Virus genome (UHGV): UHGV-1558260
Reading direction: 5' to 3' (one strand)
DNA: 10,168 nucleotides
DNA from: a virus
Shown: positions 838 through 6,823 of the stretch, one piece after another
Layout: each line of letters opens with the position of its first letter
How positions within the stretch are numbered: position 1 is the first letter of the stretch
Made by a program: the position numbers and the translations under genes
Notes under the pieces: model-generated
Databases searched by the model: none
What the model saw: only the letters and a program-made list of their open reading frames with translations
Told to the model about the DNA's origin: nothing

Positions 838-1164
838 TTAATTTATTCGTATGCCTGCTCTTTCTTCATCGAGTTTTTTTAGCTTGTATCGCATAGCTCT
901 TACTGAATAAATTGAGCGGCAGGTTGCAATTGCTATTTCTTCTGCGGAGAACTTACCGAAAAGTGATACTTCGGCTCTTGTCCATCGTCTTCCACGAAGT
1001 CGGCTAACAATGTCAGCGCCAATCCTTGTTGCTTTCGCCATTACTGCTTTTTCAGTCCTTTCCAGTTTTTCAGCGATAACTTCAACTGGCATTGTCGCCG
1101 CTACTTCGCGCAAGAAATCGACTTCCCATTTCTCCCATGGAGTCTTTTTCATAGGCGATACCAT
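838..1164 (-). CDS. hypothetical phage protein (108 aa)
   Basis: ORF-track ORF; its start overlaps the stop of the upstream gene (ATG at 1164-1162, TAA at 1166-1164). No clear SD; an alternative ATG lies at 1152. No recognisable family. Confidence 0.5.
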   Translation of the reverse strand: MVSPMKKTPWEKWEVDFLREVAATMPVEVIAEKLERTEKAVMAKATRIGADIVSRLRGRRWTRAEVSLFGKFSAEEIAIATCRSIYSVRAMRYKLKKLDEERAGIRIN

Positions 1165-1646
1165 TATTTGATAAGAAGTGAAGGTTTCCCAACCTTGAGT
1201 TGAGCGCCTGGGATATTTATTCCTGCTTTTAGTTGGTGCTTGATTGCCAACTTGTCGGCTTTAATTGTCGTTTCAAACTCAACGTATTCAGGAGGAAGGG
1301 CGCTTGAGTCGATGATTTCTACGGTTTCTGACGGTTTGCGGATTGTTACCTGGTGAATACCTGCTCGAATCTTTTTCTTGCCAACCATTTCAAGCGATGA
1401 CGCTATATATGATTTGATGCTGTCAATCTTATTTTGAATTACTGCTGCTCGTTCATTCAGTGACTTCGCCTCGTCCTTGAGGCGTTCAGCATAACCAGAT
1501 TCATTTTTAATAATGGCAAGAAGTTGCTCTATTTTATCGGTAAATTCTCCTTCCATGCCTTCTATTGTGTCAGCAATCATCTCTGGCTCTAAATCTGAAT
1601 CCATCAATTTTGCGTATTCATTGGCAATTTCATACAGTTTGCTCAC
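1164..1646 (-). CDS. Gp157-like phage protein (RecT-associated)
   Basis: ORF-track ORF 1164..1652 begins at a TTG with no spacer; GTG at 1646-1644 has GGAGG 6 nt upstream and is the likelier start. Coiled-coil-rich 160 aa protein; sits directly beside RecT as Gp157-family genes commonly do. Family assignment is from memory. Confidence 0.55.
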   Translation of the reverse strand: MSKLYEIANEYAKLMDSDLEPEMIADTIEGMEGEFTDKIEQLLAIIKNESGYAERLKDEAKSLNERAAVIQNKIDSIKSYIASSLEMVGKKKIRAGIHQVTIRKPSETVEIIDSSALPPEYVEFETTIKADKLAIKHQLKAGINIPGAQLKVGKPSLLIK

Positions 1647-2541
1647 TGGCAACCTCCAGTTTCGCTTTGCATTCTGCGTAAATGGCTTGTACGTTTTGCT
1701 GCAATTTCATTCCAGATGTCAGGCGATATGCTTCTGCAAAATATCTCTTCAAATCATCCATGTTTTCAGCCTGAGCCATTTCATCACAAAGAAGTTGTGC
1801 TTTATCCGTTATTTCCTGCTGGCGTTTCCGTTCATCTTCGCGGATATCTTCCTCTGATTTGTGCGGCATAACTGGTTCAGTCCATACACCTTCTTCTTCG
1901 TTTAGTACGTGAATAGCACTATCAAGACGTGATGCCTTAGGCCAATACTTGCTTGCACGCTTTACGACCGTCTTTCGCGCCATCTCATTCCAGTGATTTA
2001 CCCATGGTCCTTTATCGCTGAATGCCGCCTTGCTTGTTTTCCTTACAGCCTCAATTTCAGCCAGACTCATCTCTTCCGTTAGATAATCACCTGCTGGCGT
2101 CTTAACTGTGCAGTAAACACCAACGATATCGCCACGATCACCGAAGGCGTTGTATTTATGGGTTGGTGCTTTATCAAGTCCGTTTGACTCATAAGTATCG
2201 TTAGCATGAACAAGCTTTGCCTGACCCCATGAGATAACACCAGACTCCATTGCAATATGTAGCAATCCCATATAGCTGATATCAAGGCAAACCATGCCGT
2301 CGCGCGGAACCAGATAAGCCAGTTTGCTAGCCGGGTTTAAGGTGATACCGATCGCCGCAACATTGATGATGGCGTTCTGTGCGCTGGTTGGATTTGCCAG
2401 TGCCGTTTTAGCCAGGTAATCATTTTTCTGGAAATACTGAATTGCAAACTGGCTTTCCTTAGCCCATGTCACCGTCTGTTCAGTCAATGCTCCGCAGAAT
2501 AACTGCTCTTGCTGTTTAACGAATTCAACGATATTGCTCAT
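1630..2541 (-). CDS. recT: RecT-family single-strand annealing recombinase
   Basis: 303 aa; motif GPWVNHWNEMARKTVVKRASKYWP matches the conserved RecT motif (Rac RecT GPWVTHWEEMAKKTAIRRLFKYLP); GGAGAAG SD upstream of the ATG; ATGA overlap with the upstream gene. Confidence 0.85.
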   Translation of the reverse strand: MSNIVEFVKQQEQLFCGALTEQTVTWAKESQFAIQYFQKNDYLAKTALANPTSAQNAIINVAAIGITLNPASKLAYLVPRDGMVCLDISYMGLLHIAMESGVISWGQAKLVHANDTYESNGLDKAPTHKYNAFGDRGDIVGVYCTVKTPAGDYLTEEMSLAEIEAVRKTSKAAFSDKGPWVNHWNEMARKTVVKRASKYWPKASRLDSAIHVLNEEEGVWTEPVMPHKSEEDIREDERKRQQEITDKAQLLCDEMAQAENMDDLKRYFAEAYRLTSGMKLQQNVQAIYAECKAKLEVASEQTV

Positions 2542-2849
2542 GCTGCTTCTCCAAAAATGTGTCTGCGTTTGAATATTGCGAAGGCATATTCAGCCTTAAC
2601 TCTTTCGGTCATTGCATCCCAGAACCATTCAGCGGCTTTTTCCTGATAGTTACAGTCATCATCTTCCAGCCAGTCGATAGCGTCCTTAGTGTGTTCATCT
2701 GGTTTATATGAGCGAAGCATTTCGCTTATTGGGTCGCAACGTTTGCAGAGGCGATCAACTTCACTGTTGATTCGTTCGTAATCTTCATCAGTAAAACTTG
2801 CGATTATTTGCGATATTTCACGCTTATCATTCAGAGTCAGAATCATCAT
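2538..2849 (-). CDS. hypothetical protein (103 aa), in the position lambda gam occupies
   Basis: ORF-track ORF; tandem ATGATG start with AGGAGA SD; ATGA-coupled to recT. Acidic protein; does not resemble lambda Gam from memory. Confidence 0.55.
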   Translation of the reverse strand: MMILTLNDKREISQIIASFTDEDYERINSEVDRLCKRCDPISEMLRSYKPDEHTKDAIDWLEDDDCNYQEKAAEWFWDAMTERVKAEYAFAIFKRRHIFGEAA

Positions 2850-2934
2850 CTTTCTCCTGTTCTTTGTGCTGATTGAGCATTTTGTTCATCTGACGAATGA
2901 ATTCTTCGTCTGACCAGTTATCTGTAAAACTCAT
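2827..2934 (-). CDS. small acidic ORF (35 aa), speculative
   Basis: ATG at 2934-2932 overlaps the Kil-like stop (ATGA); encodes MSFTDNWSDEEFIRQMNKMLNQHKEQEKDDDSDSE. Too short for the ORF track; overlaps the start of the 103-aa gene. Confidence 0.25.
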   Translation of the reverse strand: MSFTDNWSDEEFIRQMNKMLNQHKEQEKDDDSDSE

Positions 2935-3083
2935 TTCCTGCGATACCACGGAAGGTTGATAGCTGATTTCATCGCTTTATTTGCTTCAAGCCACATTTTT
3001 GAATCACCAATAAATCTGGCTATTACTGCTTTGTTTTGTGCTGCACGAAGCATCTGGTGATTGATGGCTATTTCATTGCGCAT
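2931..3083 (-). CDS. kil: Kil-like host cell-division inhibitor (50 aa)
   Basis: Hand-translated MRNEIAINHQMLRAAQNKAVIARFIGDSKMWLEANKAMKSAINLPWYRRK; the FIGD.KM segment and position directly after cIII match lambda Kil as I recall it; GAGG SD 6 nt upstream. Confidence 0.55.
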   Translation of the reverse strand: MRNEIAINHQMLRAAQNKAVIARFIGDSKMWLEANKAMKSAINLPWYRRK

Positions 3084-3199
3084 AATAAGACCTCAACTCT
3101 TTTCCATCCGTCACGTAATTTACGGGTGATTCGTTCAAGTAAAGATTCATTTAGTTGGAAGGCACCCATGCGAGCGCCTCCCGCGATTGCGTAAATCAT
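3068..3199 (-). CDS. cIII: cIII-like protein (FtsH inhibitor, 43 aa)
   Basis: Hand-translated MIYAIAGGARMGAFQLNESLLERITRKLRDGWKRVEVLLCAMK; the core ESLLERITRKLRDGWKR matches lambda CIII; AAGGAA SD upstream. Confidence 0.75.
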   Translation of the reverse strand: MIYAIAGGARMGAFQLNESLLERITRKLRDGWKRVEVLLCAMK

Positions 3200-3223
3200 G
3201 GGTGGTTCCTTATGTTGGTTTTA

Positions 3224-4192
3224 TTAGTAGGTTATTTTTGTTGCGAATACTTCGCCTTTTACGATGGCTGTTATGATATTTTTAGCAACATCTTCTGATG
3301 CGCCAACCTTGATAAGGTCAGCAAGTATTTTGTTATTTACTTCTTTCCGGTGAGCTTTATCCTTTGCTCTACGCTCTTCTTCGTCCTTGATTCTTTTTTC
3401 TTCTGCTATTCTGGCTTGCTCTTTTGCTTCAGCCTCGCGACGGATTCGTTCAGCCTCCTCCTGTGCTTTTCTGCGTTCTGCTTCAATTGCTGCCTGCTTT
3501 TCTCTTTCAGCTCGTTCTGCTTCCTCTTTTGCTTCGCGCTGTGCTCGTTGCTCGGCTTCAATGCGCTCACGCTCTGCACGCTCCGCTGCGGCCTTAGCTT
3601 CTGCTTCTCGCCTTGCTGCTGCTTCAATTTCGGCTTTTGCCTTTGCTTCGGCTTCTGCTCTGGCTTTCTCTTCAGCTTCTCTTTTTAAGCGTTCTTCATG
3701 CTCTCGCTTTTCCTGCTCCGCTTTGAGTCTTGCCTCTTCTCTTTGGCGGTCAAATTCGCGATCCATCAAAATCGCTATTTCATGGTCAGACTCAATTTGC
3801 TTTGCGAGAGCTTCAGCTGCTGCCTTAGCTTCTTCTTCGGCTTTAATCCGTGCCTGTTCCTCCTCATAATCAGTAAGAGGCTGGCGAGCCTTGGCTTTCA
3901 GTTCATCAAGGCGATCGCGCACTGTCTTGCGGTTGGCATCAATTAGCTTTGGAATTTCCTTCAGTTCAGCAACAAGGTCTTTGCCAAGACCATCGAGATA
4001 TGTTTTCGTCTGCGCAACTTTATACGCCAGAGAAGCGATCTCCTTTCTGCCCTTTGCCGTTGTGATATCAGGCACAAAGGACATAACTTCACGTTCAACC
4101 TTTTGGAGAATTTCTTCAATCTGGTCTGCAGACTGAAATACAGTCATTGCATTTGCTTTTTCAATAACAACTAAGTCTGTTACTTCACTCAT
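3224..4192 (-). CDS. highly charged E/R/K/A-rich coiled-coil protein (322 aa; TolA-domain-II-like central helix)
   Basis: ORF-track ORF 3224..4246 trimmed to the ATG at 4192-4190, which has GGAGG 4 nt upstream. About 170 central residues are EAEAKAKAEIEAAARREAEAKAAAERAERERIEAEQRAQREAKEEAERAEREKQ-type repeats between globular N- and C-terminal segments. Confidence 0.7.
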   Translation of the reverse strand: MSEVTDLVVIEKANAMTVFQSADQIEEILQKVEREVMSFVPDITTAKGRKEIASLAYKVAQTKTYLDGLGKDLVAELKEIPKLIDANRKTVRDRLDELKAKARQPLTDYEEEQARIKAEEEAKAAAEALAKQIESDHEIAILMDREFDRQREEARLKAEQEKREHEERLKREAEEKARAEAEAKAKAEIEAAARREAEAKAAAERAERERIEAEQRAQREAKEEAERAEREKQAAIEAERRKAQEEAERIRREAEAKEQARIAEEKRIKDEEERRAKDKAHRKEVNNKILADLIKVGASEDVAKNIITAIVKGEVFATKITY

Positions 4193-4233: not shown

Positions 4234-4324
4234 AGAAGATTTCCAATAATCAGAACAAGTCGGCTCCTGTTTAGTTACGAGCGACATTGCTCACATAGCA
4301 GACTCGTAAATCTGCTATAGGCGC

Positions 4325-5917: not shown

Positions 5918-6823
5918 TCAATGCTTATTTGGGAGTGCTGGTTTTTTTATCGACTCTAATAGCTCGGAGGCGTTACTAATCTTTTTGTTCCCAAGGTAAT
6001 TTGGCAGTTTTTCCATTGCGTAATTATCGTGTAGCCATTTTCTGAACACGCCAAGTGCCTCAATAGGATAAATCCAAGCTGTTATATGCTTATTTGCAGC
6101 TGACTGCCTGTAATTTTCGGGGAATAAATGTGGGTACTGCACCCTTTCCCCGAATTTCTCAGATAGCCCATTAGCTGTCCAATACTTTCCCCAGTGAATT
6201 CCAACACTTCCATCCAAAGATGTGGTGTCATCCATTGGGAATCCTCCTCCGATCAGGTTCATGGCAATGTCAGCTATCTCTCTGAATACTGCAAAATGAG
6301 TTGTCGGTATCTGATCGTTTAGCTTAATCCTTGCTCTATAGTTCTCGAATGAGATATCTATTGAAGCATTTGGGTTGTAATTTGACTTTTCATAAATCAT
6401 TCGCTTAAGCGTGTACTCAGCCAAGCGAACAAAATTACCTATTGCGACTGACCTATCAAAATTGGTGGCATCTAGAGCGTAGTAACGGAGGATAGCCATG
6501 CAAACATAGTCAGGATAAGCATGAGTTTCCACGTTTGAGCTATTTAAAACGCGAGTGTATAGCTTTTCGACGTTATGAAACCCTTTCTCAGCTAAATACG
6601 CAGCTACTTTTTGACCTCTGGGTTTGTTTTTCTCTGTGTTCCAGTTTGATGTGAACACCCTCAGTGGCGTGTCATCAATGCCGCATAACTTTGCGAGACC
6701 GTAGAGAGTTAGGTAAGGAGTTCCATCATTGAGAACGCCCATAGGAATATCATCAGAAACAACCTCTACTACAGGGAAAAGCTGCATTTGATGCAGGGAT
6801 TCGCTATTGCTGTTAATCGACAT
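5918..6823 (-). CDS. hypothetical protein (301 aa) in the cI-to-pL interval (rexAB position); candidate exclusion/defence gene
   Basis: ORF-track ORF; AAGGAA upstream of the ATG; 86-bp spacer after the cI stop; AT-rich relative to cI. Does not resemble RexA or RexB as I recall them; no family recognised by eye. Confidence 0.7.
   Translation of the reverse strand: MSINSNSESLHQMQLFPVVEVVSDDIPMGVLNDGTPYLTLYGLAKLCGIDDTPLRVFTSNWNTEKNKPRGQKVAAYLAEKGFHNVEKLYTRVLNSSNVETHAYPDYVCMAILRYYALDATNFDRSVAIGNFVRLAEYTLKRMIYEKSNYNPNASIDISFENYRARIKLNDQIPTTHFAVFREIADIAMNLIGGGFPMDDTTSLDGSVGIHWGKYWTANGLSEKFGERVQYPHLFPENYRQSAANKHITAWIYPIEALGVFRKWLHDNYAMEKLPNYLGNKKISNASELLESIKKPALPNKH

Follow-up and report, generated by a model that had tools for sequence, protein, structure and literature searches.

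The viral contig UHGV-1558260 was analyzed as a stretch of 10,168 nucleotides, hereafter called the window, which contains the immunity and early region of a lambdoid/P22-like Escherichia coli phage. On its minus strand, the early-left (PL) operon includes a block of recombination and anti-nuclease genes, which is the region of interest. The block is headed by the gene for an acidic protein of 103 amino acids (aa), here called p103, which lies in the slot occupied by gam in phage lambda. With a probability of roughly 0.55, p103 is a candidate for a third type of Gam-like inhibitor of the host nuclease RecBCD, and the comparisons below suggest that it may be a very distant relative of lambda Gam. 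A sequence-only reading of the same DNA had placed p103 in the Gam position and offered it as a possible analogue of a RecBCD or host-nuclease inhibitor. That proposal gains support from the slot itself, from the replacement of p103 by Gam-type genes in sister phages, from a weak similarity to lambda GamS that lies above its null, and from a homologue of the Gam modifier Mog in three lineages, with the function being inferred throughout.

p103 in the gam slot

The slot was surveyed in 80 viral contigs whose gp157 is almost identical to that of the window. In 76 of them p103 stands in front of recT. In one contig (L017) a full-length homologue of lambda GamS takes the place of p103 and is followed by the same RecT, Gp157, and 104-aa genes. 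Phage HK639 holds GamL in the slot, ahead of a RecT with 68% identity to that of the window (59% for the RecT of phi80) and a Gp157 with 62% identity. p103 is the slot equivalent of Gam and GamL.

The lambda Red genes (gam-bet-exo) lie in the same operon and in the same order after cIII-kil as the window block, with p103 in the gam slot. Unlike the window, lambda has Exo and uses Bet instead of RecT as its annealing protein. Phages phi80/Lula and HK639, whose GamL belongs to NF033500 and phrog_1050, have the same RecT type as the window. The GamL-RecT-Gp157 architecture of HK639 is the same as that of the window, whereas phi80 has Exo. Compared with phi80 and HK639, the window has cIII, kil, and a short open reading frame (ORF), orf35, between Mog and the slot gene.

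p103 has an isoelectric point (pI) of 4.65 and a net charge of −9. It belongs to phrog_3486, not to phrog_259 (lambda Gam), and has no family in Pfam or NCBIfam. A profile search of 1.84 billion representative proteins (E ≤ 0.001) returned 54 proteins, about 35 of which are full-length (~100 aa), and the full-length relatives reach down to 24% identity. The p103 family has a median pI of 4.65 and a median net charge of −9, compared with 4.78 and −10 for GamS, and both are ~100 aa in length. The AlphaFold model of p103, built on a five-sequence alignment, is all-helical with five predicted helices and is of low confidence (predicted local distance difference test, pLDDT, of 68). In form and position p103 agrees with a Gam-type protein: it is ~100 aa long, acidic, predicted to be all-helical, and encoded between kil and the annealing-protein gene. 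It shares size, charge, helical character, and a weak sequence motif with lambda Gam.

Neighborhoods of p103 homologues were compared in the window and in 14 further contexts (24–97% identity). In every one of these 15 contexts the recombination block starts with the homologue. Where visible, its upstream neighbor is cIII or kil, the same slot as that of lambda gam. The next gene, which the homologue abuts or overlaps, codes for RecT in nine contexts and for an exonuclease in five. The genes downstream of the homologue are RecT-Gp157 (P0014 and P0156), RecT-YqaJ or a Bet-like protein with YqaJ (P0165, P0174, and P0172), RecT-exonuclease (Cronobacter ENT47670 and Erwinia Midgardsormr38), RecT (P0190), a RecE-type (DUF3799) exonuclease (SEN22, P0181, P0185, and P0187), and an exonuclease of the phrog_2489 type followed by Gp157 (P0175). 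Because the downstream partners vary so widely, p103 resembles a host-aimed factor more than a specific RecT cofactor.

In SEN22 (L004, 3315–3884) and in L178 (4639–5193), the RecE-type (DUF3799) exonuclease is followed by a protein of ~185 aa that belongs to phrog_11517 and to no Pfam family. This protein is placed where an annealing protein would be expected and could be an unrecognized one.

The gene contexts also bear on an alternative in which p103 works as an accessory factor of recombination, targeting the phage's own proteins or single-stranded DNA-binding protein (SSB), as suggested for P22 Arf, and is no inhibitor of a host nuclease. p103 lies immediately ahead of the annealing-protein or exonuclease gene, where P22 has arf. 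Its coupling to the next gene is conserved, as is a C-terminal E-[AV]-A whose codons overlap the ribosome-binding site and ATGA start of the following gene. The diversity of the partners (several RecT types, Bet-like, RecE-type, YqaJ-type, and the phrog_2489 exonuclease) nevertheless argues against a specific protein partner. In addition, p103 has no similarity to Arf, the Arf-like N-terminus sits on the separate orf35, and the Gam similarity and slot replacements point elsewhere. An Arf-like role is considered unlikely.

Similarity to lambda Gam was assessed with hhalign using a 32-member p103 alignment and a 16-member GamS alignment. One local match was found, pairing positions 53–80 of p103 with positions 57–84 of GamS (28 columns, score 23.0, E 1e-3). 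A score of 23.0 was reached in none of 500 column shuffles (maximum 22.4, mean 11.3, standard deviation 2.3). Scored with the p103 hidden Markov model (HMM), Gam sequences have a median of 11.6 bits and reach at most 16.5 bits; only 9 of 20,000 shuffled Gam sequences attained the median. In the other direction, the Gam HMM gives about 9–12 bits for close relatives of the window p103 and 14.3 bits for the most divergent member (P0190); 10 bits was reached by 7 of 20,000 shuffled p103 sequences. The cross-family matches of 10–16.5 bits are reciprocal and collinear, with an empirical p of about 4e-4 under composition-preserving shuffles. When the Gam HMM was run over 2760 real ORFs of the fetched loci, true Gam ranked first and only p103 ORFs came next. 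The best-conserved residues of p103 (T54, A57, D65, Y/F68, Q69, and E/D70) align with the GamS invariants S58, A61, D69, F72, Q73, and E74. The motif common to p103 and the C-terminal half of GamS is [ST]K.AI....D.D..[FY]Q[ED].

It could be argued that a match of 28 columns with an hhalign probability of only 20.6% reflects composition or chance, and that p103 is an unrelated early accessory gene (for example, for counter-defense or host takeover) that happens to lie beside recombination genes. Small accessory genes abound in lambdoid early-left operons, and the p103 family is unnamed in any library. Three observations make this quite unlikely. p103 heads a recombination block in 15 of 15 contexts, down to 24% identity; the Gam match is not reproduced by composition-preserving shuffles; and sister phages hold Gam or GamL in the slot. 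As judged from these scores, the similarity between p103 and GamS is probably real but weak, and alone it would not carry the argument for a Gam-like inhibitor.

Further support comes from the gene upstream of cIII, which codes for a homologue of phi80 agt/Mog (51% identity over 322 aa, E 2e-64). Both proteins belong to phrog_1376. The phi80 GenBank record describes agt as ‘anti-toxin for Gam; modifier of Gam’ and gamL as ‘toxic without Mog’. The names GamL and Mog reportedly come from Rotman et al. 2012. The window Mog homologue shares 59% identity with the protein encoded ahead of cIII and a p103 homologue in Erwinia phage Midgardsormr38. A Mog homologue lies ahead of cIII and p103 in three divergent lineages: the window, L179 (p103 identity of 26%), and Midgardsormr38 (p103 identity of 39%).

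Related phage records list the Mog homologue as ‘TolA protein’ or ‘cell envelope biogenesis protein’. These labels look erroneous and seem to stem from the coiled coil, which is rich in Ala, Glu, and Lys.

Several results weigh against a Gam-like p103, in addition to the low hhalign probability. The global alignment of p103 with GamS is not significant, and the similarity is local. None of the 32 p103 members matches PF06064 (Gam), even at E ≤ 10. The profile and structure check proposed by the sequence-only reading gave the weak local match of p103 to GamS and no Gam by Foldseek or in PDB for either p103 or Gp157. For p103, the Foldseek search of PDB with the low-confidence model returned nothing below E 1.7 and the PDB sequence and profile searches returned only coiled-coil or repeat noise; the Gam chain was not recovered by either. 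Comparison of p103 with the GamL of phi80 and HK639 by hhalign was not significant, and p103 has no NCBIfam match, so it does not belong to NF033500, against which phi80 GamL scores 148.6 bits. The slot in other phages also holds genes of unknown mechanism, such as P22 arf. Among 76 closely related viral loci with p103, only 3 contain a Mog homologue, and HK639 lacks one despite its GamL, so the link between Mog and p103 is sporadic. Lastly, end protection by Gp157 may seem to make a second inhibitor redundant. A second anti-nuclease gene is not superfluous beside Gp157, however, because L017 and HK639 both carry a Gam-type gene together with Gp157.

A strict partnership of Mog with p103 was also considered and is ruled out by the count of 3 in 76 loci.

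GamL and GamS have only their N-terminal 26 residues in common (hhalign probability of 91.6%). The likeness of p103 to GamS is confined to the C-terminal helix-loop-helix region. p103, GamS, and GamL may be mosaics of a common ancestor.

RecT, Gp157, and the absence of a phage exonuclease

The block's single-strand annealing protein is RecT, which scores 112.4 bits against PF03837 (cut-off of 24) and 82.4 bits against TIGR00616 (cut-off of 52.65).

The 5’-3’ exonuclease is not supplied by the phage. In mEpX1, a phage with the same four-gene block, annotation of the complete genome includes no such enzyme, only NinB, RusA, and HNH genes. By Pfam, there is no nuclease domain in the scanned downstream left-arm ORFs of the window, mEpX1, and vB_EcoP-683R2. 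These ORFs code for Ead/Ea22, DUF2737, DUF5405, DUF7446, and DUF551 proteins or are familyless. The adjacent Exo/YqaJ-type or RecE/DUF3799-type 5’-3’ exonuclease of a two-component recombinase is not found in the window. The sequence-only reading had seen no exonuclease partner, and this holds both for the window and for the complete mEpX1 annotation. The counter-case it had named, an exonuclease just beyond the window, does not arise because mEpX1 and the scanned left arms are without one. The same family assignments gave no sign of an exonuclease concealed in the downstream ORFs of the three phages.

P22 is like the window in having no phage exonuclease, a short acidic ORF downstream of kil whose N-terminus contains ‘SDEEFI’, and a phrog_323 (Abc1-family) gene after the annealing protein. 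It is unlike the window in having Erf instead of RecT, in having Abc2, and in lacking Gp157. No similarity was found between p103 and the P22 proteins Abc1, Abc2, and Arf.

This likeness raises the possibility that p103 is an Abc2-like hijacker of RecBCD, with RecBCD supplying the missing exonuclease and loading RecT, as proposed for P22 Abc2 with Erf. The exonuclease is missing from the block, the layout resembles P22 kil-arf-erf-abc1-abc2 with its Abc1-family gene included, the two proteins are close in length (103 aa for p103 and 97 aa for Abc2), and phages with Abc2 have been published as lacking an exonuclease (PMC9836394). The possibility is nevertheless very unlikely. Against Abc2 (phrog_656), p103 gives a BLASTP E of 3.3 and an hhalign probability of 0.7%, and the two are of opposite charge (pI 4.65 for p103 and 8.95 for Abc2). 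Homologues of p103 also head blocks with their own YqaJ/Exo or RecE-type nuclease, where hijacking would be needless. The same RecT-Gp157 core is found in L017 behind a true lambda Gam, which fully shuts off RecBCD.

Gp157 scores 131.5 bits against PF05565 and covers profile positions 1–162 of 162. The family it matches, phrog_253, is labeled ‘Mu Gam-like end protection’ by PHROGs. Another Sipho_Gp157 protein was matched by HHpred to the Gam structure 2P2U at 99.4% (PMC10530707), and in Firmicutes phages Mu-gam, gp157, DUF1351, and DUF2483 share one slot beside erf or sak4 (PMC8093625). The AlphaFold model of the window Gp157 (pLDDT of 77) consists of a long helix and then a small beta domain. 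There is no Pfam match of Gp157 to Mu Gam (PF07352), and PDB sequence and profile searches gave coiled-coil or repeat noise. The two belong to different PHROGs (253 for Gp157 and 491 for Mu Gam). Two non-significant comparisons count against the Mu Gam link of Gp157 in the proposed explanation. Foldseek with the Gp157 model found no Gam in PDB or BFVD, and hhalign of Gp157 (118 sequences) with Mu Gam (53 sequences) gave a collinear alignment with a score of 15.9, which is within the column-shuffle null of 13.3 ± 2.4. Because neither comparison gave a significant link, ‘Mu Gam-like’ is used here for Gp157 as the annotation of others only.

In BFVD, the Foldseek matches of the Gp157 model (m326969f5e1db) are mostly Gp157-family or uncharacterized proteins. 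A few longer matches are a PD-(D/E)XK domain protein, an exonuclease, and a COG5377 endonuclease (E 6e-3 to 0.6). These nuclease-annotated matches could reflect a shared domain, a domain fusion, or a mere helix-plus-sheet shape. Gp157 was considered as a cryptic PD-(D/E)XK nuclease, as its predicted helix-three strands-helix-strand order resembles that fold, and was set aside because no conserved D...(D/E)xK was seen among its invariant residues.

The 108-aa protein encoded after gp157 contains tandem helix-turn-helix (HTH)-like repeats and shares phrog_323 with P22 Abc1 and Mu gp9 (E8). It matches Mu gp9 by BLASTP (E 5e-6) and has no direct BLASTP match to P22 Abc1, so the description ‘Abc1-like’ is valid at the PHROG level only. 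The Gally record names it ‘Anti-RecBCD protein 1’. In Mu, gp9 lies immediately upstream of gam, and a gp9-like ORF is likewise placed in 51 of 80 Mu-type loci. The pairing of a phrog_323 gene with a Gam-type gene therefore recurs in two unrelated phage groups, being seen in Mu-type loci and in the window block. Like the window block, in which Gp157 bears the end-protection annotation, the Mu pair consists of a phrog_323 HTH protein adjoining a Gam-type end-protection gene. The Mu pair differs in that the gene order is reversed and in that Gp157 belongs to another PHROG than Mu Gam.

In five loci (L093, L094, L178, L182, and L183), the last slot of the block holds either a phrog_323 gene or a gene for a phrog_1680 protein of 109–150 aa, which is called ‘regulator’ in HK639. 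The phrog_323 and phrog_1680 genes seem to alternate at this position, making a second set of interchangeable genes.

The following mechanism is proposed. As a small, acidic, helical protein, p103 would bind and block host RecBCD in the manner of lambda Gam. Gp157, taken as Mu-Gam/Ku-like, would cap double-stranded DNA ends. With RecBCD neutralized and the ends protected, RecT could anneal single-stranded DNA that arises from replication forks or from other host nucleases. The Mu gp9/Abc1-like 108-aa protein would serve as an accessory factor. By analogy with the phi80 record on GamL, the Mog homologue may temper the toxicity of the inhibitor.

Gene layout and orf35

The right side of the window carries cI, cro, cII, O, and a DnaB-like gene, and the minus strand carries N and the early-left operon. 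The genes of the operon are listed in Table 1.

Table 1. Early-left genes of the window upstream, within, and downstream of the recombination block.
Feature	Coordinates	Strand	Assignment
Agt/Mog homologue, 322 aa, coiled coil	3224..4192	-	51% full-length identity to phi80 agt/Mog; phrog_1376
cIII	3068..3199	-	PF02061 E 4e-15; phrog_550
Kil	2931..3083	-	PF06301 E 1.7e-20; phrog_2055
orf35, 35-aa acidic ORF between kil and p103	2827..2934	-	phrog_17766 E 7.6e-16; pI 4.27
p103, 103-aa acidic protein in the gam slot	2538..2849	-	phrog_3486 (function unassigned); no Pfam/NCBIfam family
RecT, single-strand annealing protein, 303 aa	1630..2541	-	PF03837 E 2.7e-32; phrog_148 E 1.8e-92; NCBIfam RecT
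Sipho_Gp157 protein, 160 aa, GTG start	1164..1646	-	PF05565 E 3.9e-38; phrog_253 E 6.3e-54
Basic HTH-like-repeat protein, 108 aa (104 aa from ATG at 1152)	838..1164	-	phrog_323 E 5.5e-21; pI 10.0
Ead/Ea22-like gene, next after the 108-aa gene	runs off window end	-	Pfam

The minus-strand genes from cIII to the 108-aa ORF form a chain of overlapping or abutting ORFs. The kil stop overlaps the orf35 start (ATGA), the p103 stop and the recT start share an ATGA, recT and gp157 overlap by 17 nucleotides, and the gp157 stop and the start of the next ORF share a TAATG. The three genes described by the sequence-only reading are present on the minus strand after kil and cIII, at the positions it gave, and RecT is tightly coupled on both sides, as it had stated. 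Its description of the module as RecT, a Gp157-like protein, and a 103-aa protein rather than exo/bet/gam agrees with the Pfam, PHROG, and NCBIfam assignments. Its list of the block was incomplete, as the three genes it named are joined by orf35, the 108-aa gene, and the Mog homologue, all of which it missed.

Because its homologues are 160 aa in length, gp157 is taken to start at the GTG of position 1646 and not at the TTG of position 1652. The ORF of the Mog homologue extends mechanically to a TTG at 4246, and its likely start is the ATG at 4192 (MSEVTDL). The genes of the block are not chance ORFs, since they show ~98% identity in several phages and include p103, which lies directly upstream of recT in 264 of the 270 complete E. 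coli genomes with this recT and has full-length relatives down to 24% identity.

The family-wide C-terminal E-[AV]-A of p103 is kept even at 24% identity. At positions 2538–2552 of the window (minus strand), the codons GGA GAA GCA GCA TGA form the end of p103, the recT Shine-Dalgarno sequence, and the ATGA start. Conservation of the p103 C-terminus may reflect translational coupling rather than protein function.

The 35-aa ORF between kil and p103 is present in 74 of 80 related viral loci. Its first 20 residues match phrog_2123 (‘recombinase’), and ‘SDEEFI’ is common to orf35 and the N-terminus of P22 Arf (E 0.007). In HK633, Sf101, IME10, and N7, a region of 99.5% nucleotide identity spans cIII, kil, and the start of orf35 and ends at about window position 2885. 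orf35 seems to span a mosaic junction. The protein P0025 looks like the product of a natural deletion that joined orf35, at a short repeat coding for DDD, to the p103 C-terminal half.

Outside the operon genes in Table 1, a 301-aa ORF (5918–6823, minus strand) lies between N and the cI repressor gene. The N-to-cI interval in lambdoid phages often houses exclusion genes.

Distribution and implications

The region from 838 to 3300 is found with 97.6–98.4% nucleotide identity over 85–100% of its length in vB_EcoP-683R2, Louie, Kapi1, mEpX1, HK140, and Gally. The window recT is present in 270 of 5426 complete E. coli genomes and has p103 directly upstream in 264 of the 270, or about 5% of complete genomes. 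All related phage records that were inspected annotate p103 as a hypothetical protein.

In phage Louie (L005, 3806–4273), an HNH endonuclease gene (PF13392) lies between recT and gp157, and the block is otherwise 98% identical. It appears to be an inserted homing-endonuclease gene.

A 2025 survey of lambdoid Rec modules (Zheng, Casjens et al., Genome Res) describes HK140 as having a RecT-type ‘SAP-4’ and MuGam with no nuclease and no SSB, and recognizes four anti-RecBCD types: Gam, GamL, Abc2, and MuGam (PMC12315714). The main text of the survey does not mention the p103 gene, and only the MuGam-type gene is counted there as an anti-RecBCD function (PMC12315714). The ‘MuGam’ of HK140 is presumably its Gp157 homologue. 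On this reading of the survey, and with the PHROGs label, an anti-nuclease role has already been given to a gene of the block other than p103. The HK140/mEpX1-type module has the same genes in the same order as the window, with 97.6–98% nucleotide identity; the window differs from mEpX1 in having a Mog homologue. The arrangement is an ordinary, already catalogued variant of the lambdoid Rec module (HK140 type). What is new is the evidence on p103, which no library names.

Chi octamers (GCTGGTGG) occur six times in the complete mEpX1 genome, all on a single strand, with none on the other strand. The 10-kb window has none, and neither does P22. The 2025 survey linked Chi density to the absence of a RecBCD inhibitor (PMC12315714), which makes Chi counts in phages with p103 potentially informative.

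Extended to the whole family, the proposal is more tentative, and its chances are put at somewhat under even. It holds that phrog_3486 would be an unrecognized third class of Gam-type RecBCD inhibitor, distantly related to Gam, that heads RecT or RecE-type blocks in phages of Escherichia, Salmonella, Cronobacter, and Erwinia. The toxicity of its members would sometimes be tempered by Mog, and together with Gp157 they would let RecT work without a phage nuclease.

RecBCD is a hub of bacterial immunity, and phage RecBCD inhibitors trigger several abortive-infection systems. Recombineering with linear DNA likewise relies on such inhibitors as helper proteins. The block offers natural variants for studying a RecT without a dedicated nuclease, since p103, lambda Gam, and GamL each accompany the same RecT-Gp157 core in different phages, and the p103 gene itself is found both with and without an exonuclease. 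The prediction for p103 is cheap to test genetically. If true, a third Gam-type family would sharpen the published list of lambdoid recombination modules and may explain some of the modules now scored as having no anti-RecBCD gene. It would also provide a new reagent to try in hosts in which lambda Gam works poorly, and a candidate trigger or evader for the defenses that guard RecBCD.

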